From assembly GCA_964635635.1 (NCBI GenBank), contig CAZWPE010000002.1:22312-86311 (forward strand): a stretch of DNA of 64,000 bases. Reading direction: 5' to 3'. Position 1 is the stretch's first letter. Each line of letters opens with the position of its first letter. Shown here piece after piece: positions 8,847-58,766 of this stretch. This DNA comes from an uncultured Myxococcaceae bacterium (GTDB lineage Bacteria > Myxococcota > UBA727 > JABDBI01). The notes below the pieces were generated by a model, which saw only the letters and a program-made list of their open reading frames with translations, made no database searches and was not told the DNA's origin. A program made the translations under genes and the position numbers.

Positions 8847-10104
8847 AGCTGGCTTCTGCTGGAATTGGCCTTACAGCATAGGGAGTATAATCGAGGACTG
8901 ATTTGATTATCAATCCTGAGAGTACCCCAATCAACAGGTCCACTTTGAGTGTAATCAAAAGCGTTGTCAAGAATACAATCAATGTTGGGACTCCAAGGCT
9001 ATACATATGAGCGAACGCTTTGGGAGATGCAAGCCTGAGGCCTGTAATAATCAGCAATGCAGCGAGTGCTGATAGTGGGATCAAATGAATGACCGGTGTC
9101 AATAGTGTGACAGCTACCAATATGAATATGCCATGATAGAAATTTGAAAACCTACTTTGGGCGCCAGCATCGATGTTAGCTTTACTCCTAACAACTTCTG
9201 AGATCATGGGGAGACCGCCAATCATGCTAGAACAAAAGTTCGCGACACCGACTGCAAATAAATCTCGGTCTAAACTGGCTTTTTTATCGACAGCCATGAC
9301 CGTGAGAAGGGACTCAAGGCTTCCAATTAGAGCAAGCATGATGATGTATTTCCAAGCGATTGGATTACCTAAAGCGCTGAAGTCTGGAAGCGTAATTGAA
9401 CTTAGAAAATTTGCAGGAAGCGTGACGAGAAATTGGGGCCCAACTTCGAATCGTTGTCCCTCGAACCAATAAAAATGGTCTAGATCTAAGTGCCAGTACA
9501 TCGCCAAGGGCAAAACAAACAAAAGTGATGTGAGGGCAGGGGGGATTTTTTTAAGGATAGAGCTTGGGAGTAGCGGGTAAAACCATACTGTCATGAGCGT
9601 TACCATGCCAATGGCTAGGATTTCCGGATTACTGTTAGCGATGCTGTGTGGAACTTCGGCGAGAAGCTGAAGGGGAGTTTTGCTACTAGGCAATACGCCA
9701 AGCATAATATGGAGCTGCTTGGCGATAATAATAATGCCAATAGCAGCGAGCATACCTTCGACAACAGGGACAGGAACATATCTGGCAATTTTCCCTGCTC
9801 CCAATCTTGAGAAGATGATTTGAATCAGGGCTGCCATCACACCGACTGCTAGACATTTTTCGTAACCCAATTCTTGGACAGCACCTAGAATGATAACGAT
9901 TAAACCTGCTGCGGGGCCTTTAATTGTCAGAGGCGATCCACCCAGAATTGTTGGGATAATACCTCCAACAATTGCCGTAATCAGGCCTGCCATCGGGGGG
10001 AATCCGCTGGCCATAGCAATCCCTAGGCAAAGCGGTAGAGCAATCAAAAAAACCAAAAATCCGGAACGAAGATCTGCCATAGGATTACCTCTCCAAGGGA
10101 ACAA
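8830..10104 (-). CDS. SulP-family anion transporter without a STAS domain
   Basis: 424-aa polytopic membrane protein with the SulP signature region (LIALPLCLGIAMASG, GPAAGLIVII). Ends right after the membrane domain with no C-terminal STAS. Overlaps the dabA start by 17 nt. Confidence 0.55.
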   Translation of the reverse strand: MFPWRGNPMADLRSGFLVFLIALPLCLGIAMASGFPPMAGLITAIVGGIIPTILGGSPLTIKGPAAGLIVIILGAVQELGYEKCLAVGVMAALIQIIFSRLGAGKIARYVPVPVVEGMLAAIGIIIIAKQLHIMLGVLPSSKTPLQLLAEVPHSIANSNPEILAIGMVTLMTVWFYPLLPSSILKKIPPALTSLLFVLPLAMYWHLDLDHFYWFEGQRFEVGPQFLVTLPANFLSSITLPDFSALGNPIAWKYIIMLALIGSLESLLTVMAVDKKASLDRDLFAVGVANFCSSMIGGLPMISEVVRSKANIDAGAQSRFSNFYHGIFILVAVTLLTPVIHLIPLSALAALLIITGLRLASPKAFAHMYSLGVPTLIVFLTTLLITLKVDLLIGVLSGLIIKSVLDYTPYAVRPIPAEASYEDEA

Positions 10105-26201: not shown

Positions 26202-27919
26202 GGAATATTCTCCTTCAGTATGGTTTAGCCTCGATGTTTTACTCGCGCAACTGGGTTTTTCTATGTTTCATCATCTCACTAATTTCAGGAGTTAGTTGCA
26301 AGCCGAAAGGGCATCAAATACGGGAGCAACTGGCTAGCCCCGATACCATCACCATAGGCCTTTCTCAGGAACCAGATTCGTTGTTTGTGCCATTCAAGGA
26401 AATGATGGTTTCCGAAGAGGTAATGCGTGTTGGGAATTACACTCTGACAATTTTCGATGAAGGGTGGAATCTTGTTCCTTGGGCTGCAAAAGAAATCCCA
26501 ACCGTTAAAAATGGTGGGTTAAGACTTTATACGGAAAATGGTCAGAAAAAGATGCAGACAGTCTGGCATATTAGGGAAGACCTTTTTTGGCCAGACGGCA
26601 AACCGCTGATCGCAGATGACTTTGTCCTAAATTATGAAATTCATAAAGATCCAACTCAAGAAGTGATTGACCGGACCGGTGTTGAAAAAATTGAGCGAAT
26701 GGAAAGCATTGGGGTGGACAAAAAGACCCTGGTGGTAACTTGGAAGGAGCCTTATGCCTATTATGCCAATTACCGAAATCATGAGGCATTACCGGTTCAT
26801 ATTTTAGGCCCGCTATACCAGTTAAATCCTGAGCGTCTTAAAAAAAGCCCATTTGCTCAAACACCCATGCTGGCTGGGGCATATACCATTACAGAGTGGT
26901 CACCGGGTGAGTATATCCGCGCTGAGGTGAATGCTTATGCTAAAGGTTGGCTGAAGCCAAAAGTCAAAGAGATTGTCTGGCGCATTATCCCCCAAACAAA
27001 CACACTTGAGTCAAATTTGGTTGCAGGCGATATCGATGCAATTTCTCCTGTTGGTATGGATTTAGATCAAGCCATGCAATTTGAGCGGCGCTTCAAGGAT
27101 CGATTTAACTTCTATTACACCCCTGGTTTGGTCTGGGAGCATATTGATTTCAATTTAGATAACCCAATCTTGAAAGATAAACGTGTACGCCAAGCGCTTG
27201 CCTATGGTTATAATCAAGATGGTATTACCAAGTTGCTTTTTAAAGGCAGGCAGCCATCTGCGCATGCAAGTGAGCCCGAAAAATCTCCTTACTACAACCC
27301 CAATGTCCGAAAATATGAGTTTAACTCAGCCAAAGCAGAAGCTTTGCTTGAGGAGGCTGGCTGGAAGCGGCCGAGTCCGGGTGAAACCCGCCAAAAAAAT
27401 GGCCAGCCATTAAAATTTATCCTGATGACAACTTCGGGCAACAAATCACGAGAACGGGTTGAACAGCTTTTACAGTCTTCTTGGCGGAGTATTGGGATAG
27501 ATGTTGAGATCCGAAATCAGCCAGCCAAGGTTTTTTTCAGTGAGACAGTTCATAAACGCAAATTCCCTCACATGGCACTGTTTTCTTGGGTGAAGGATCC
27601 AGTCATGATGTCAGACACAATCTGGCGTTGTGATAATATCCCCCGCGAATCAAATCACTTTTTGGGTCAGAACATATCTGGATTCTGCAACGCCGAGGCA
27701 GATGCTCTGATCAAAGCTGGGTCGCAGGAATTGGACGCTGCTAAGCGTGCCAAGATAGGTCAGAAATTAGAGGCTGTACTGGCAGAGGAACTTCCGTCGT
27801 TGCCTCTATACTTTAGAGTTGAAGTGAGTGTGACCAAGAAAGGTTTCCAAAATTGGAAGCCGACGGGTATTTTACAACCAGTGACCTGGAATGCAAAAGA
27901 TTGGAGCTTTAAATCATGA
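26195..27919 (+). CDS. ABC transporter substrate-binding protein, family 5 (peptide/nickel, OppA/DppA-like); true start probably downstream of 26195
   Basis: About 570 aa periplasmic binding protein with the overall family 5 pattern. Directly followed by two OppBC-type permeases. Confidence 0.6.
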   Translation: MTWNILLQYGLASMFYSRNWVFLCFIISLISGVSCKPKGHQIREQLASPDTITIGLSQEPDSLFVPFKEMMVSEEVMRVGNYTLTIFDEGWNLVPWAAKEIPTVKNGGLRLYTENGQKKMQTVWHIREDLFWPDGKPLIADDFVLNYEIHKDPTQEVIDRTGVEKIERMESIGVDKKTLVVTWKEPYAYYANYRNHEALPVHILGPLYQLNPERLKKSPFAQTPMLAGAYTITEWSPGEYIRAEVNAYAKGWLKPKVKEIVWRIIPQTNTLESNLVAGDIDAISPVGMDLDQAMQFERRFKDRFNFYYTPGLVWEHIDFNLDNPILKDKRVRQALAYGYNQDGITKLLFKGRQPSAHASEPEKSPYYNPNVRKYEFNSAKAEALLEEAGWKRPSPGETRQKNGQPLKFILMTTSGNKSRERVEQLLQSSWRSIGIDVEIRNQPAKVFFSETVHKRKFPHMALFSWVKDPVMMSDTIWRCDNIPRESNHFLGQNISGFCNAEADALIKAGSQELDAAKRAKIGQKLEAVLAEELPSLPLYFRVEVSVTKKGFQNWKPTGILQPVTWNAKDWSFKS

Positions 27920-29358
27920 AGCACTTGGGCCTTAGGCTAGCGCAGATGTTTGCTATTCTCGCTGTGCTGAGTGTCTTTCTTTTTGCGTTGATGCTTAAAA
28001 TGCCTGGTAATCCGGTCGATTTATTGATTACCAGCAATCCGCGGATCAAAGCTGAAGATGTGATTCGGCTTAAAAAGCTTAAGGGCCTCGATAAGCCTTG
28101 GTATGTGCAATATGCACGTTGGATGTGGGGGTATTATGAACCCATGCGCGCACCGGAAATCCCATCCAGTTGGGGAGAAATACCCCCCTTTGAAAAAGGG
28201 GGGGAGGGGGGATTTATTAGCAGTGGCCGTGAGTGGATTATTGCTAAAAATGAGGCTGGTCTCGAGTCAGTAGGCTCTCGGGTTGTTCAGAAATCTAAAC
28301 CATCTCCATTTTGGATTGTTCCGATCCCAGAGCAGGTTGTTGAGAATGCTGACAATTTTTCAGTCGATTTGTCACACTATGTGATGGGAGATACGAAGGG
28401 ACTGACTTATAAACTTGAAAGTGGTCCGGGGAAGATTGACGCGTCGGGTGTTTATCGGTGGCCAGAGCATGCCATGGGTCAGAAGGCAGTTGTTTTCAGC
28501 GTTCGAAACAAAACTGGTTTAGAAGCCAAAGGCGCGTTTTCGGTTGAGCAGGATCCGGTTCCGAATAGGTCTCTATTTAATCGTGGATTCATGTTTGTGT
28601 TAATAGGCGATACCGCTGCGATGGGTTTTTCAAATACATACAAACGCCCCGTGTGGGGACTTCTAAAAAGCCGTATTGCTAATACATTGGCCCTCATGAT
28701 TCCTGCGATATTGCTGTCGCTCCTAATCGCTTTGCCGCTTGGAATCTGGAGTGCATACAGGCAGTATTCATGGCTCGACTATGTTTTGAATTTCCTAGCC
28801 TTTGTTGGCATCTCAATGCCTGTTTTTTGGTTCGGAATCATGATGATGTACTGGTTTTCCGAACAACTTCAGTGGCTTCCGGCAGGTGGTATTGAAACTC
28901 CGGGCATTGGACGACAAGGTCTTTGGATTCAGTTTTTGGATCGCCTGGAGCATGCAATTTTACCTGTCTCAGTCTTGTCGATTGCCTATGTGGGTCGCTG
29001 GCTTCGATATATGCGCGCATCGATGTTGGAAGTGTTGCCGGCTGACTATATTCGAACTGCTCGTGCGAAGGGTTTGTCCGAACGTTGGGTGGTTTTGAAA
29101 CATGCTTTGCGTAATGCACTGATTCCCATCGTGACCATTTTAGCGTTGTCAGTCCCCGCACTTTTTGGTGGAGCGGTGCTGACAGAGACTGTATTTTCGT
29201 GGCCCGGGATTGGGCGTTTAGAGTACGACGCAATTGCAAGCAGTGACTATTATGTGGCGATTGTGGTGTTTTTGATATCGGCCTTTTTAGTGATGTTGGG
29301 TAACTTGCTTGCCGATTGGTTGTACATTTTGGTTGACCCAAGAATGAGAAAATCATGA
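27916..29358 (+). CDS. ABC transporter permease, OppB/DppB-like, with a ~170-aa periplasmic insertion between TM1 and TM2
   Basis: C-terminal two-thirds matches OppB-type permeases (EAA-like loop YIRTARAKGLSERWVVLKHALRNA). Residues ~60-230 are extra and contain an Ig-like beta-rich segment. Confidence 0.7.
   Translation: MKHLGLRLAQMFAILAVLSVFLFALMLKMPGNPVDLLITSNPRIKAEDVIRLKKLKGLDKPWYVQYARWMWGYYEPMRAPEIPSSWGEIPPFEKGGEGGFISSGREWIIAKNEAGLESVGSRVVQKSKPSPFWIVPIPEQVVENADNFSVDLSHYVMGDTKGLTYKLESGPGKIDASGVYRWPEHAMGQKAVVFSVRNKTGLEAKGAFSVEQDPVPNRSLFNRGFMFVLIGDTAAMGFSNTYKRPVWGLLKSRIANTLALMIPAILLSLLIALPLGIWSAYRQYSWLDYVLNFLAFVGISMPVFWFGIMMMYWFSEQLQWLPAGGIETPGIGRQGLWIQFLDRLEHAILPVSVLSIAYVGRWLRYMRASMLEVLPADYIRTARAKGLSERWVVLKHALRNALIPIVTILALSVPALFGGAVLTETVFSWPGIGRLEYDAIASSDYYVAIVVFLISAFLVMLGNLLADWLYILVDPRMRKS
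28156..28216. repeat. Second intragenic copy of the G/C-tract palindromic element (GAAATCCC ... CCCCCCTTTGAAAAAGGGGGGGAGGGGGGATTT)
   Basis: Core is near-identical to the mfd copy. Encodes ...EIPPFEKGGEGGFI... in frame within the permease loop. Confidence 0.6.
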
Positions 29359-30257
29359 CAGAGACCTTTTCTGCACTGGTTTGGAGACGGTTTAAAAAGC
29401 ACAAGCTCGCGTTTTATTCGGCGTGGATTTTGCTGGTGCTTACTTTATTATCCGTGGCTGCGGGTGTTATCGAAAGTTTTCTGCATGTTTCCCATGACAT
29501 GGCGAGTCTGGATTTGGTGAATCAGGGCTCTGGCTGGCCACATTTGATGGGCACCAATGAGCTGGGTCAAGATGTTTTCACGCGTCTTTTATACGGCGGA
29601 CAAATTTCACTTGCGGTTGGTGTGATCTCGGCAGTGACTTCAGCGATTATTGGTTCGGTGATTGGATTGCTGGCGGGATATTACGGAGGTTGGCTGGATA
29701 GCATCTTGATGCGCTTTACCGATGCAATGTTGTCAATTCCAGTATTGCCACTCATGATCGTTTTTTCTGCGATTGATTTGGAAGCCATGTTTGGAGCCAG
29801 CAGCTGGACCTCGGGCAACTTTGCTTCGGTCGTTAAGCTTATTTTGATTATTGTTTTCTTTGGATGGATGACGGTGGCGCGTCTTGCTCGTGCAGCAGCT
29901 TTGCAACTTAAGAGCATGGAATTTGTGACAGCGGCACGTTCGCTGGGAGCTTCAGATCTTCGTATGCTTCTGGTTCATATTTTTCCAAACGCTCTAGCGC
30001 CAATTATTGTCGCAGCGACTCTCGAAGTAGGTGGCAATATTTTATATGAGGCATCTTTAAGTTTTCTAGGACTTGGTGTTCAACCACCCGTTAGTTCTTG
30101 GGGTAATATGCTGAACAACGCCGTTGAGTACATCAAAAGCGACCCAAGCTTAGCCTTTTGGCCGGGATTTATGATTTTAGTGACGGTGTCATGTTTTAAC
30201 TTCTTTGGTGATGGTTTGAGGGATGCGCTTGACCCGTATCAAGTCATGAAGCAATAA
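29355..30257 (+). CDS. ABC transporter permease, OppC/DppC-like
   Basis: 300 aa, six TM helices, EAA-like motif region (AARSLGASDLRMLLVHIFPNA). Confidence 0.75.
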   Translation: MTETFSALVWRRFKKHKLAFYSAWILLVLTLLSVAAGVIESFLHVSHDMASLDLVNQGSGWPHLMGTNELGQDVFTRLLYGGQISLAVGVISAVTSAIIGSVIGLLAGYYGGWLDSILMRFTDAMLSIPVLPLMIVFSAIDLEAMFGASSWTSGNFASVVKLILIIVFFGWMTVARLARAAALQLKSMEFVTAARSLGASDLRMLLVHIFPNALAPIIVAATLEVGGNILYEASLSFLGLGVQPPVSSWGNMLNNAVEYIKSDPSLAFWPGFMILVTVSCFNFFGDGLRDALDPYQVMKQ

Positions 30258-30264
30258 TGCTTGC

Positions 30265-30597
30265 ATGATTAAACAAATTACGTGCGATGACCTTAAAGCC
30301 AAGCAATCTTCCGGTAGTAAATTTTTGCTGATTGATGTCCGAACTCGTGAAGAGTGGAATGAAGGCAATATCCCGGGAGCTAAGCTCATGCTTGATATAC
30401 CAGGGGAAGAACTTGAAACGCTGCCTAAAGATACTGAGATTGTGTTTCAGTGTCGTTCCGGAGGCAGAAGCCAGCGTATGGCCGAGATTTTTGAAGCACG
30501 CGGTTTTACGAATTTGGCCAATCTGGCTGGTGGAATCCTGTCTTGGTCGCAAAAATCTGGCACAAGTGCCTCGTGTTGCGCGTCCCATCTCCACTAG
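30265..30597 (+). CDS. Single-domain rhodanese (sulfurtransferase)
   Basis: Active-site loop FQCRSGGRS and the LIDVRTREEW motif. Confidence 0.7.
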   Translation: MIKQITCDDLKAKQSSGSKFLLIDVRTREEWNEGNIPGAKLMLDIPGEELETLPKDTEIVFQCRSGGRSQRMAEIFEARGFTNLANLAGGILSWSQKSGTSASCCASHLH

Positions 30598-37465: not shown

Positions 37466-37550
37466 TATGAGATATTTCTGGATCCCGGGTCAAGCCCGGG
37501 ATGACAAAACAGTCTGTTTATCGTCTGACTCTGTTGTTCCATCAACCAAC

Positions 37551-37615
37551 TTACCCATTTGTTCTGCTACCAAATCTTTGCGCAGCTGGCTTTCGAACTG
37601 AGCTTCGCTTAAGTG
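37551..37615. repeat. Left copy of a 65-bp imperfect direct repeat (ancestral 3' end of the SurA_N/PpiD-like gene)
   Basis: Matches 38641-38705. The last 32 nt (CTGGCTTTCGAACTGAGCTTCGCTTAAGTG) are identical. Minus-strand translation gives ..HLSEAQFESQLRKDLVAEQMGKLVDGTTESDDKQTVLSSRA*. Confidence 0.7.
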
Positions 37616-38526: not shown

Positions 38527-39132
38527 TTACCCTTGGGGTAATGCAGAACTCTTGATGGTGGCGCCTTTTTTCAAAAACTCAACATAGTTCTGGAAAAACT
38601 TGGCGCGTGGCTCATCGCTTTGAAGGGTTCCGTCAATCAGCTTGCCCATTTGTTCAGCTACTAGATCTTTGCGTAACTGGCTTTCGAACTGAGCTTCGCT
38701 TAAGTGATAGTTTGAATAAATTGCACGTTGATAAGCTGCACGATCAATTTTCTTTTCACCCCCAAATAAGTTGGTTCGAATAAAGTCGGCAAGCTCGCGG
38801 TCTGAAACCCTGAGACCCTCGCTCTCTGCGAGCTGAGCCAAGAGCGTTTTCGAAATTAGGCGCTCCAGAACAGCCTTTTTAAGCATTTCTTGTACAGGGC
38901 CTTCCGGATTAAAATCGGGTGTGTTGCTTTGGATCATGCGGATCTGCTGTGTGTAGGCCATCTGAAGTTCAGGGTAAGTGATAACATGTCCATTGACAGT
39001 CGCAGCATAGGGAAGTTCGGAGCCAGTTTGTCCAACCCATGGGCCAAAATTGATGGCAAACACAAAGATAATGACCCCGAACAGGAGTACAATCAACCAA
39101 GAGTTTGAGTTTTTTCGCATGAGATCGAGCAT
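38527..39132 (-). CDS. SurA N-terminal-domain periplasmic chaperone (PpiD N-terminal-like), 201 aa
   Basis: Signal-anchor helix then YAATVNGHVITYPELQMAYTQQ..., as in the PpiD/SurA N-domain. Its 3'-terminal 38 codons differ from the ancestral tail preserved at 37489-37560. Confidence 0.55.
   Translation of the reverse strand: MLDLMRKNSNSWLIVLLFGVIIFVFAINFGPWVGQTGSELPYAATVNGHVITYPELQMAYTQQIRMIQSNTPDFNPEGPVQEMLKKAVLERLISKTLLAQLAESEGLRVSDRELADFIRTNLFGGEKKIDRAAYQRAIYSNYHLSEAQFESQLRKDLVAEQMGKLIDGTLQSDEPRAKFFQNYVEFLKKGATIKSSALPQG
38641..38705. repeat. Right copy of the 65-bp direct repeat (inside the current PpiD-like gene)
   Basis: See left copy at 37551-37615. Confidence 0.7.
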
Positions 39133-56226: not shown

Positions 56227-57774
56227 CTAAGCCTCATAACGTTGCTTGATATACACCTGCTGAGCAATGGTAAGCAGGTTATTGACCAGCATATAGATCG
56301 AAAGCCCAGCTGGCAAGTTCAGCATAATGAAAGTCAAAAATAGGGGCATAAACCACAAGACATATTTCATTTGAGGCTGAGAATCATCAATCGCTGGAGG
56401 CATGATCCACTGGCTTGCAAGCATGCTGACACCCATCAAAATTGGCATGACATAGTAGGGGTCTGGCTGGGTCAAGTTGGAAATCCAACCATAGAAAGGC
56501 TGTTCAAAAAGCTCTACAGAGTTGCCCAGCATTTGGTACAGGGCAAACCAAACCGGCATCTGAATCAAGATAGGCAAGCAGCCCGCCATGGGGTTAATAC
56601 CCTCTTCTTTGTAGAAAGCCATTTGCTGTTGAGCAAGCATTGCCTTGTCATGGCTGTATTTGGTTTGCAGCTCTTTCAGCTTGGGCTGAATCTTCTTCAT
56701 TTGCTGTTGTGCTTTAAAAGACTTGTTCGTTAGCGGGAAAGTCAGCAGCTTGATAAACACCGTGAGCAAAATGATAGCAATGCCGAGATTACCCACAAAT
56801 CCGTTAATTTTAAGCAAAAGCCACAACAAAGGCCGGCTCAACACACCAAACCAGCCGTAGTCGATATTTTCGACGATCCCATGACCAGCCTCTGTGAGTA
56901 GGGCAGAATCTTTGGGGCCGATATAGGCATCAAAAGTGAAGATTTTCGAAGCGCCTGGTTGCAGAATAAATGTTGGTGCTCGGAGACTGATTTCCAGAGA
57001 CTTATCCTTTTCAATCGTGTCCGTTTTGGCTGTAAGCGACTCAAACTGAATATCGCTGTTTGGGGCAAAGCTCATGAAAAAATAACGGCGGTCAAAGCCA
57101 ACATACTGTGGACTGCCGGCGAAGCTTTGAGCTTTTTCGACCAGGTCAGCAAAGGGGATTCTTGTGTGTTTGTCGCCAATTCTAAAAGAAGCGGCCAGCT
57201 GTTCTTCTTTGGAAATAGCTGCTTCGCGTGTTTCAAATACCCAGTTGAGTGAAAGTGCCTGCGGAGCAGAACCCTGATTCTTGAACTCAACGCTTTGGCC
57301 AATCACGAATGGCTTTGAAGCAAAATCGTAGCGTCTCGTCACCGAGATGCCTTCATGCGTTACTTTCTGGAAAACCACTTCTTGAGCATCAGATTTGACC
57401 AGATTGAATCTAGTTTTCCCTGAGAGATTCAATGACGAATCTCTGGATTCAACAAGCCAATGAGGTGTTAACACGATAGGAGCTTGATACCCTGTGAGTG
57501 ACAAATTCGTGATTTGTGCGCCTTCACTTGATACGGTCACATCGTAGCCTTGTTCATGAAGCGTTCGAGTGATGAGCGGCAATGAAGTCTCAGGTTCAGG
57601 AGCTTTGCTTGGAGCTGGTGGCTGAATTGGAGCAGTGGCCACAGGTTCAGTTTGTACAGGCTTTGGTTTGCTGCCAGGTTTTGGAGCAAATAAGGCGTTA
57701 TAGCCCATGAGCAATGCAGTCATCAAAAAGACGGCCAACAGAAGGCGCTTAAAATCTGGAGTTTCTGGATTCAT
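56227..57774 (-). CDS. yidC: Membrane protein insertase YidC
   Basis: N-terminal TM, large periplasmic domain, C-terminal five-TM core with the conserved YidC pattern. 515 aa. Confidence 0.85.
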   Translation of the reverse strand: MNPETPDFKRLLLAVFLMTALLMGYNALFAPKPGSKPKPVQTEPVATAPIQPPAPSKAPEPETSLPLITRTLHEQGYDVTVSSEGAQITNLSLTGYQAPIVLTPHWLVESRDSSLNLSGKTRFNLVKSDAQEVVFQKVTHEGISVTRRYDFASKPFVIGQSVEFKNQGSAPQALSLNWVFETREAAISKEEQLAASFRIGDKHTRIPFADLVEKAQSFAGSPQYVGFDRRYFFMSFAPNSDIQFESLTAKTDTIEKDKSLEISLRAPTFILQPGASKIFTFDAYIGPKDSALLTEAGHGIVENIDYGWFGVLSRPLLWLLLKINGFVGNLGIAIILLTVFIKLLTFPLTNKSFKAQQQMKKIQPKLKELQTKYSHDKAMLAQQQMAFYKEEGINPMAGCLPILIQMPVWFALYQMLGNSVELFEQPFYGWISNLTQPDPYYVMPILMGVSMLASQWIMPPAIDDSQPQMKYVLWFMPLFLTFIMLNLPAGLSIYMLVNNLLTIAQQVYIKQRYEA

Positions 57775-57825: not shown

Positions 57826-57935
57826 GTATTTACCCTCTCCCTCTGGGGGAGGGAGATTTTGGCTCGCCAAAATCGGGAGGGGGTCCGTATTAAAGGAAGT
57901 GAACCCTCCCCCAGAGGGAGAGGGTAATTTGGTTA
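57826..57935. repeat. Intergenic compound inverted repeat: 23-bp arms CCCTCTCCCTCTGGGGGAGGGAG / complement, plus an inner TTTTGG-ctcg-CCAAAA hairpin
   Basis: Seen in sequence between divergent yidC and uppP. Shares the GGGGGAGGGAGATTTT motif with the intragenic elements. Confidence 0.55.
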
Positions 57936-57956: not shown

Positions 57957-58766
57957 ATGGAACTGACTTTTCTTCAGGTGGCTTTGTTGGCTATTGTGCA
58001 GGGTGCTGCCGAACTTTTGCCTGTTTCGAGCTCGGCACATGTGATTTTGGCAGAGCGCCTCATGGGCATAGACCCAACGACACCAGAGATGACCTTTTTA
58101 TTAGTAATGCTTCACACGGGAACGATGTTCGCTGTGCTTTTGTATTTCTGGAAGCGCTGGATTACGTTGAGCCTCGATTTTTTCAAATGGGTGATTGCAG
58201 CAACGGCTGTGACGGGCTTTGTAGGCTTGGGGCTCAAGTTTGGGATTGAGCATTTGATTGGTGCTGAACTTGAGACGTTATTTGGCAATTTAAGACTGAT
58301 TGCGTGTGCTCTGTTTGCAGTGGGTATTTTTATTATTGTTGCGGACTTTATTTCTGCAGCGAAGAAGTTAAAAGAGGGTGACCACGAACTAACGCTGCGA
58401 AGTGCTTTGTGGATAGGTTTGGTTCAAGCACTTTGTTTGCCTATTAGAGGCTTTTCAAGATCAGGTGCTACAATCTCCACAGGGTTAGTGTTGGGTGTTT
58501 CACGCCAGAGAGCGGAAGATTTTAGTTTTGCCCTTGCGGTTGCTGTCACTCCCCCAGTGATTTTACATGAACTTAAGAGGCTCGTCGAGCATCACGAAGA
58601 GAACTGGATGCATCATGTAACGCCAGGACTTTTGGGGATGTGTTTGAGTTTTGGGGCCGGTTTGCTGGCTCTGCGTTGGCTTTCTAGTTGGCTTGAGCAA
58701 GGACGCTGGAAGTTATTTGGTATTTATTGCTTGATGTTTGCAGCACTGATAGCGTTTGTGGGTTAG
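57957..58766 (+). CDS. uppP: Undecaprenyl-diphosphatase
   Basis: BacA/UppP motifs: VSSSAHV and RSGATISTGL (PGxSRSGxTI-type). 269 aa, eight TM helices. Confidence 0.85.
   Translation: MELTFLQVALLAIVQGAAELLPVSSSAHVILAERLMGIDPTTPEMTFLLVMLHTGTMFAVLLYFWKRWITLSLDFFKWVIAATAVTGFVGLGLKFGIEHLIGAELETLFGNLRLIACALFAVGIFIIVADFISAAKKLKEGDHELTLRSALWIGLVQALCLPIRGFSRSGATISTGLVLGVSRQRAEDFSFALAVAVTPPVILHELKRLVEHHEENWMHHVTPGLLGMCLSFGAGLLALRWLSSWLEQGRWKLFGIYCLMFAALIAFVG

Follow-up and report, generated by a model that had tools for sequence, protein, structure and literature searches.

How did a short palindrome built of C and G runs come to lie in frame inside a transport permease gene, and to what kind of element does it belong? 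This question is raised by a 64,000-nucleotide stretch of contig CAZWPE010000002.1 from an uncultured Myxococcaceae bacterium (hereafter the window; 44.8% G+C), in which an OppB/DppB-like ABC permease gene carries such a palindrome (the oppB element) and the transcription-repair coupling factor gene mfd carries a sister copy. We conclude, with a probability of about 0.7, that the oppB element belongs, as a decayed and non-autonomous copy, to a widespread G/C-run palindromic family whose units are found inside the terminal inverted repeats (TIRs) of ~650-bp elements encoding a YcjD-like DUF559 protein. Coordinates are collected in Table 1.

Two related in-frame doublets in oppB and mfd

The DNA of the oppB element reads AAATCCCATCCAGTTGGGGAGAAATACCCCCCTTTGAAAAAGGGGGGGAGGGGGGATTT, and its in-frame product, EIPSSWGEIPPFEKGGEGGF, occupies approximately residues 81–100 of the permease (translation around the element: ...APEIPSSWGEIPPFEKGGEGGFISSGR...; peptide stretch specified by the element: EIPPFEKGGEGGF). 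It is a doublet of two units in inverted orientation. The left unit is decayed, and the right unit is intact and consists of a 9-bp hairpin followed by a third block that forms a mirror repeat. Pfam places the domains BPD_transp_1_N (residues 6–73) and BPD_transp_1 (residues 272–479) on either side of the element, and the twelve closest homologs (P0001–P0012) could be aligned both to the left and to the right of it. An exact-sequence look-up of the window OppB protein gave no match.

The sister copy in mfd is a full 77-nt doublet, AAAATCCCCCTCAATCCCCCTTTGCTCAAGGGGG-AAGAGATA-CCCCCCTTTGAAAAAGGTGGGCTGGGGGGGATTTT, which encodes KIPLNPPLLKGEEIPPFEKGGLGGI at residues 305–330. Over their shared 40-nt stretch the two copies are equal at 35 bases (88% identity), and the similarity extends into the 8-nt spacer (GAGATA vs GAAATA), a segment that differs in the copies of other genomes. 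Pairwise alignment showed that the oppB left unit is ~14 nt shorter than its mfd counterpart, and DNA folding gave −14 kcal/mol (z −2.0) for the oppB copy and −24 kcal/mol (z −4.1) for the mfd copy. Compared with the mfd copy, the one in oppB is decayed. The two sites hold a genome-specific doublet subfamily that is marked by the GAGATA/GAAATA spacer.

The element consists mostly of C and G runs, and the window contains 50 runs of at least five C or G, so that the similarity of the two copies might be put down to chance low complexity. However, a search for the 21-mer core with up to three mismatches found two sites (three strand-specific matches) where 0.01 were expected from 100 dinucleotide shuffles, the 35/40 identity includes the spacer, and the oppB copy is an exact match to a pattern that recurs at no fewer than 116 genome loci (see below), which the mfd copy fits with one G-to-T mismatch. 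These results leave chance a negligible share. They uphold the first-pass annotation, made from the sequence alone, which had described a second in-frame copy of one palindromic element in the permease gene; the host open reading frame (ORF) is intact.

Permeases of the DppB/OppB type have a cytoplasmic N-terminus, and by analogy with this topology a position in the periplasmic loop, downstream of the first transmembrane segment, is plausible for the element. The AlphaFold model of the permease, built from a shallow alignment, was poor overall (mean predicted local distance difference test score, pLDDT, 59) and gave residues 72–99 as coil at pLDDT ~44. In the same model, residues 100–212 are predicted to form an extra beta-rich domain of ~110 residues in the first periplasmic loop (pLDDT 70–88). 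Permease homologs of 580–720 residues carry other inserts in this loop, some with PF13948 cysteine-rich repeats, and the loop has the look of a hotspot for inserted domains.

Replacement of the oppB copy between close relatives without conservation of the peptide

The closest homolog, P0001 (GCA_964484075.1, locus L001), is 95% identical at the protein level and carries a palindrome at exactly the same boundaries as the oppB element. The interior of this palindrome is different: it reads GAGATTCCCCCTCTCCACAGGGTGGAGAGGGGGCCAGGGGGTGAGGGATTT and encodes PPLHRVERGPGGEG, where the window encodes SSWGEIPPFEKGGEGG. The two permease genes are 89% identical in DNA overall (1279/1443 columns) and ~90% identical outside the element, whereas across the element only 21 of 60 positions match (35%) and the L001 sequence is 9 nt shorter. 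The interior of the oppB copy has thus been replaced between two close genomes with its boundaries kept, and the encoded peptide has not been conserved. This comparison bears out the earlier proposal that the repeat is still reshaping core genes. An inversion between the two oppB alleles was considered and rejected, as the reverse complement of the L001 interior is unlike the window interior. As a side observation, a 391-aa AAA_14/DUF4143 ATPase gene lies between oppC and a rhodanese gene in L001 (3449–4624) and is absent at the corresponding window position (30257–30265), which is a further indel that separates the two genomes near oppB.

The remaining homologs (P0002–P0012) are without the oppB element, and the site is variable in length among them, with an unrelated linker of 16–45 residues in homologs at 71–75% identity. 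A metagenome scan for the orthologous oppB site (TGGATGTGGGGNTAYTAYGARCC) returned two matches, one unrelated and one a distant ortholog without the element. The mfd site gave a similar picture. In an exhaustive HMMER search, matches to Mfd homologs were split into segments of 1 to ~305 and ~325 to 560, exactly at the element, and the aligned homologs have 55–80 unrelated residues at the site where the window protein has only 25 element-coded ones; a word-index homolog search with the Mfd segment recovered fragments only. Both copies therefore lie in hypervariable, tolerant linkers, and the ancestral residues at both sites appear to be missing, not merely interrupted. The window Mfd is 1103 aa long, compared with ~1110–1220 aa for most full-length homologs, and lacks the 55–80 residues of the variable region at the element site, as though the element had replaced them. 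A GCTCG direct repeat lies 2–3 nt from the mfd copy and does not abut its ends.

The two window copies share one open frame, which the first-pass annotation had ascribed either to selection on the peptide or to an insertion mechanism confined to one phase. The consensus hairpin CCCCCCTTTGAAAAAGGGGGG has a stop codon in one of six frames only (cc ccc ctt TGA) and is open in the other five, and hand translation found the mfd copy open in four of six. The chance that two copies share one open frame is ~0.25–0.5. Since most frames are free of stops, the shared frame of two copies is weak evidence. Copies inside genes of other bacteria (Pfam-verified cases in Table 1) read PPFEKGGxGG or PPLKKGGRGGF, and IPPxPPFSKGG or IPPAPLFQRG from the opposite strand. 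Since copies occur in other frames and on the opposite strand, the in-gene copies are not bound to any one phase, and a phase-specific mechanism is not supported.

The idea that the peptide (IPPFEKGGxGG) is a functional motif of mature proteins, with its frame kept by protein-level selection, could draw on the common frame in the window and on the recurrence of PPFEKGGxGG[IF] in five in-gene copies: those in glutaminyl-tRNA synthetase (GlnRS), a polyketide synthase (PKS), Lhr and RlpA, and that at L095, which is without a Pfam check. Yet the proteins that host these copies have no relation to one another, and the copies lie in linkers or variable loops. Moreover, the majority of copies are intergenic, and conservation is seen at the DNA level, non-coding phage copies included. 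With a different peptide at the same site in the nearest relative, and with varied frames elsewhere, selection on the peptide is not supported and we consider it very unlikely. In Chromatium okenii GlnRS (L065:803-2665, minus strand), ~45 extra residues at the start of the anticodon-binding domain correspond to three consecutive in-frame units (EEIPPAPPFTKGGEEKPPVDKSPQPPLLKGEEEEKPPFEKGGLGGF). Taken by itself, the oppB copy is an ordinary case of a known phenomenon, an in-frame palindromic repeat tolerated in a protein loop.

Table 1 Features of the window, unit types of the repeat family and copies inside genes of other genomes
Feature	Position or locus	Strand	Composition or basis
OppB/DppB-like ABC permease ORF, host of the element	27916-29358	+	480 aa; ORF list, Pfam, homologs
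oppB element, in-frame left-right doublet with decayed left unit	28157-28215	+	Sequence, alignment to mfd copy
Decayed left unit (AAATCCC-ATCCAGTTGGGG) and spacer AGAAATA	28157-28182	+	Direct reading, alignment to mfd copy
Intact type A right unit	28183-28215	+	CCCCCCTTT-GAA-AAAGGGGGG(G)-A-GGGGGGATTT; exact core match
mfd ORF (transcription-repair coupling factor)	22402-25713	+	Pfam UvrB_inter, CarD_TRCF_RID, DEAD, Helicase_C, TRCF
Sister copy in mfd, full 77-nt in-frame doublet	23314-23390	+	Repeat search, fold, homolog comparison
mfd doublet, type B left unit	23314-23347		
mfd doublet, spacer	23348-23355		
mfd doublet, type A right unit	23356-23390		
Third palindrome, 98 nt, intergenic yidC/uppP	57830-57927	.	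24-nt arms, 100% complementary
yidC	56227-57774	-	
uppP	57957-58766	+	
Unit type A (6-6-6 runs)			C6TTT-nnn-AAAG6-N2-3-G6ATTT
Unit type B (5-5-5 runs)			C5TTT-nnn-AAAG5-ATTGA/ATTTA/ATCGA-G5ATTT
In-gene copy, GlnRS of Chromatium okenii	L065		Pfam-verified
In-gene copy, AcrB-family pump	L073		Pfam-verified
In-gene copy, PKS ACP-KS linker	L140		Pfam-verified
In-gene copy, Lhr helicase	L051		Pfam-verified
In-gene copy, RlpA linker	L035		Pfam-verified
In-gene copy, CcmI/CycH	L034		Pfam-verified
In-gene copy, Family-B polymerase (PolB)	L127		Pfam-verified

A pan-bacterial unit family that forms the ends of DUF559 elements

We scanned one genome per species with the pattern CCCCCCTTTGAAAAAGGNGGG-N2-3-GGGGGGATTT and obtained at least 126 matches at at least 116 loci. 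Among the matches listed, the genomes range from 30% to 73% G+C, the copies are mostly intergenic, and the taxa include Gamma-, Beta- and Deltaproteobacteria, Binatia, Kapaibacteria, Deinococcota, Omnitrophota, Elusimicrobia and Acidobacteriota, with the cultured isolates Lysobacter, Luteimonas, Thiothrix, Chromatium and Geomesophilobacter. An exact core search of viral contigs found 31 further loci on contigs of 42–68% G+C. These data show that the oppB element is one copy, without a gene, from a unit family that is pan-bacterial. The 34-nt unit (C6TTT-GAA-AAAG6-N2-3-G6ATTT) occurs in two types, A and B. The run lengths covary: among 128 units not forced by the search pattern, 65 have 5-5-5 runs and 18 have 6-6-6 runs. 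Units of the two types pair in inverted orientation into doublets of 60–80 nt, in two arrangements, left-right (LR; tails outermost, as in mfd and oppB) and right-left (RL; tails innermost, spacer 11–47 nt). Rfam found nothing in the window at the gathering threshold, and its E-value mode gave only spurious sub-threshold hairpin matches.

The blocks of the oppB right unit follow as C6T3, GAA, A3G6(G), A and G6ATT, and the third block mirrors the purine block. By its register this layout falls within the definition of the ITxF motif (stems of at least 6 nt, loops of 1–6 nt; PMC4666352). The predicted pairing would comprise six G*G:C, one A*A:T and two T*A:T triads, as in a class II purine-motif intrastrand triplex (CCCCCCTTTGAAAAAGGGGGGCTAGGGGGGATTT, with the putative triplex-forming third block). 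Such a register would account for the conserved positions of TTT and AAA and for the ATTT tail.

Four units in Lysobacter sp. Root916 (L079 968-1912), spaced alternately by ~228 and 454 nt within a longer repeated segment, look like a tandem array of a unit-containing module. The third palindrome in the window has the arms TTACCCTCTCCCTCTGGGGGAGGG... and folds at −35.5 kcal/mol (z −8.1). It shows a CCCTCTCCC/GGGAGAGGG flavour, which is BoxC-like and which we liken to BoxC and to 'CCYTC class 4' of the Geobacter metallireducens genome paper (PMC2700814); we regard it as probably a module of a related type, different from the unit in oppB and mfd. Elsewhere in the window, positions 9529–9555 (GAGGGCAGGGGGGATTTTTTT) resemble an isolated G6ATTT tail but may also be an ordinary terminator-like run. 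An 80-nt direct repeat (37536–37615 and 38627–38706; 89% identity, 1091 nt apart) probably derives from adjacent paralogous genes.

We clustered 2970 ORFs from the at least 116 genome loci all-against-all. One small ORF family recurrently adjoins the units, identified by Pfam as DUF559 (PF04480); it is found at L056, L069, L105, L112, L122 and L139 and at the viral locus L029 (n = 7), in the order right unit, gene, left unit. A search with one DUF559 protein returned 1497 homologs, and among the best 120 of these, 113 have C-termini reading ...EIPPGPPLKKGG (AEIPPGPPLKKGG), which is the translated left unit. Most contigs with unit-flanked DUF559 genes are shorter than 2 kb, as would be expected of repeats that break assemblies. 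One protein of 139 aa, P0165, is encoded identically in six or more distinct gene neighbourhoods, and alignment of its copies delimits a ~650-bp element with TIRs of ~85 nt and DUF559 as its sole gene. The TIR reads CCCCCACCCTnnCCCTCCCCC-TCGA-GGGGCATAAGCGCTAACTTAAT-CCCCCCTTTGAAAAAGGGGGG-AA-GGGGGGATTT. The 34-nt unit is its inner part, and its outermost module (GGGGGAGGG-TTA-GGGTGGGGG) resembles type A of the TMECO repeats of E. coli. The presence of an identical element at six or more loci shows mobility. In other bacteria, the same units make up the TIRs of a DUF559 element that has been mobile recently. The NCBIfam model of E. coli YcjD is matched at full length by the unit-flanked proteins, which also match PDB 3HRL, an 'endonuclease-like protein'. 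With the DUF559 element as query, blastn found nothing in plasmids, tblastn searches of phages yielded distant DUF559 domains only, and PADLOC gave weak domain-level matches only. A DUF559-containing gene has been placed among Vsr-like/EDxHD homing endonucleases, as summarised in PMC9403480, citing Taylor 2011 (see also PMC3239194 and PMC2677866). DUF559 is also enriched among predicted targets of programmed inversion (PMC9881135), which fits the flanking inverted repeats. No paper tying DUF559 or YcjD to these repeats was found in the literature searched, in which not all journals are covered, and within that literature the association appears to be undescribed.

E. coli K-12 offers a single-copy counterpart. 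At L162 (NC_000913.3 1351204-1351760) ycjD has its stop and final codons within a decayed BoxC/TMECO-like unit, and an intact, inverted unit, TMECO no. 9 (Holder Table 1), is found 154 nt downstream. Of 5426 complete E. coli genomes, 3378 have the gene, as a single copy; it is reported from phylogroups A, B1 and C, and eefRABCD stands in its place in B2 and others (PMC12817139). TMECO repeats comprise two types that pair as inverted doublets, form triplexes in vitro and mark loci that are unusually rearranged between strains; they are reported to be intergenic without exception in MG1655 and to have no association with mobile elements (Holder et al. 2015, PMC4666352). They number 19–30 in A/B1/C strains, 1–2 in B2 strains and 6–15 in D/E/F strains (Holder Table S1, PMC4666352). 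That TMECO counts track the ycjD-bearing phylogroups fits a functional link. The strains of that table are grouped here by our own assignment to phylogroups.

Mechanism, alternatives and relation to known systems

In this lineage the genome-specific doublet was copied no fewer than two times, into mfd and into oppB. Its copies may persist owing to the hypervariable linkers, the mostly stop-free composition and the flexible, Pro/Gly-rich product, and turnover of the interior may be due to structure-driven instability or to gene conversion with other copies. By analogy with RAYT acting on repetitive extragenic palindromes (REPs) and REPINs, the DUF559 nuclease would nick or cut at the units and so drive their copying. 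In the wider form of this proposal, a nuclease gene between inverted units with the triplex motif would be mobile, with several copies, in some bacteria and present once in others. G/C-run palindromes and BoxC/TMECO repeats would then serve as the cis elements in a pan-bacterial, REP/RAYT-like system not described before, with a YcjD-type DUF559 enzyme driving the spread and instability of gene-less units, including those in oppB and mfd. We advance this wider form tentatively, at slightly worse than even odds.

Several observations weigh against this account. A tblastn search found no DUF559 gene in the 64-kb window, where the copies are gene-less. Inspection revealed no convincing target-site duplications at the boundaries of the mfd copy, the oppB copy or the DUF559 element. 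Both in-gene copies replace ancestral residues, for which plain insertion is an insufficient explanation. The in-gene doublets have the LR arrangement while the gene-bearing elements have right unit, gene, left unit, and therefore the small copies are not simple internal-deletion derivatives. The triplex is putative, read from the register of the blocks, and the E. coli correlation between ycjD and TMECO is confounded by phylogeny. Finally, strand transfer by a lone PD-(D/E)xK nuclease is not known to occur.

Two further explanations were weighed against the DUF559-based one. Short imperfect palindromes in inverted doublets, mostly extragenic and in many copies, are what would be expected of classical REP/REPIN sequences moved by RAYT, an IS200/IS605-like Y1 transposase, or of a MITE (a miniature transposable element with inverted repeats) of a DDE insertion sequence. 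However, the 2970 clustered ORFs contain no recurrent transposase cluster, and DUF559 is the only gene recurrently adjacent to units; the units are without a GTAG-type 5' tetranucleotide, the same 34-nt unit spans phyla whereas REPs are species-specific, and the lack of visible target-site duplications also tells against this origin, which we consider unlikely. Alternatively, the units might be host-selected cis elements that are not mobile, serving as terminators, mRNA stabilisers or protein-binding sites, with the in-gene copies modulating the expression of oppB and mfd. Consistent with this, highly expressed phage genes, a capsid gene among them, are flanked by units, the hairpin is strong, and Lysobacter units often directly follow stop codons and precede T-rich tracts. 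But the units match no Rfam family, they occur in both orientations and in unrelated contexts, and BoxC/PIT repeats are without promoter or terminator activity in work summarised in PMC4666352. The copy in oppB is itself decayed and has a different counterpart in the nearest relative, and the dispersal of one identical DUF559-bearing element bespeaks mobility. A purely regulatory role is therefore improbable.

If DUF559 acts on the units as the DUF559-based reading supposes, this would give a function to a widespread domain of unknown function and an origin to BoxC-type repeats, and would define a new nuclease–repeat partnership that is testable in E. coli K-12. The analysis connects three topics that are usually kept apart, namely 'selfish' palindromes that lie in frame in core genes, BoxC/triplex-motif repeats with their link to genome instability, and the DUF559/YcjD family. 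In practical terms, the units break metagenome assemblies and yield spurious hypothetical proteins of the 'PPFEKGG' type.

Among known systems, the window copies resemble the Rickettsia palindromic elements (RPEs) in being palindromic repeats in frame in housekeeping genes at residue-tolerant sites, with intergenic copies as well. The oppB element has further copies outside its gene, leaves the host ORF intact with neither a frameshift nor a stop, and occupies a length-variable region, predicted as coil, where homologs P0002–P0012 lack it. In contrast to RPEs, which are 105–146 bp long and confined to Rickettsia by the account of Ogata et al. 2000 as cited in Delihas 2011 (PMC3184786), the unit here is a 34-nt G/C-run sequence found in many phyla and phages. 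By that description length, composition and host set it apart from the RPE family proper.

With BoxC/PIT/TMECO repeats the units share the three-block C-G-G layout with short loops, the pairing of two sub-types as inverted doublets and the rearrangement of loci between close strains. The stem is C6T3/A3G6 here and CCCTCNCCC/GGGNGAGGG in TMECO, so that the oppB unit departs from the TMECO consensus (CCCTCNCCC-N3-6-GGGNGAGGG-N3-GGGNGAGGG), and the CCCTCTCC flavour is seen only in the third window palindrome and in the L001 variant. Unlike TMECO, copies here also lie in genes and in the TIRs of DUF559 elements.

The likeness to REP/BIME and REPIN-RAYT systems (Nunvar 2010; Bertels and Rainey 2011, PMC3116915) lies in short palindromic units, mosaics and mostly extragenic inverted doublets of imperfect palindromes, and in a nuclease gene that is itself flanked by inverted units and single-copy in some hosts (E. 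coli ycjD). The partner differs, being a DUF559 nuclease of PD-(D/E)xK type and not a Y1 HUH transposase, as do the units, which are conserved across phyla. No Y1 (RAYT) gene flanked by units was found among the ORFs of the at least 116 loci. With regard to MITEs, the ends are TIR-like and the units are shared with an autonomous-looking DUF559 element; the arrangement, however, is permuted (LR vs right unit, gene, left unit), no target-site duplication was seen, and the window copies do not enclose a gene between a right and a left unit. EDxHD/Vsr-like homing endonucleases (I-Bth0305I; Taylor 2011, PMC3239194; Dassa 2009, PMC2677866) likewise represent a small Vsr-like nuclease gene as selfish DNA. 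Those enzymes, as the two papers present them, are encoded in introns or inteins and home to one cognate site, whereas the DUF559 genes are free-standing, are bounded by long structured TIRs and occupy unrelated loci.

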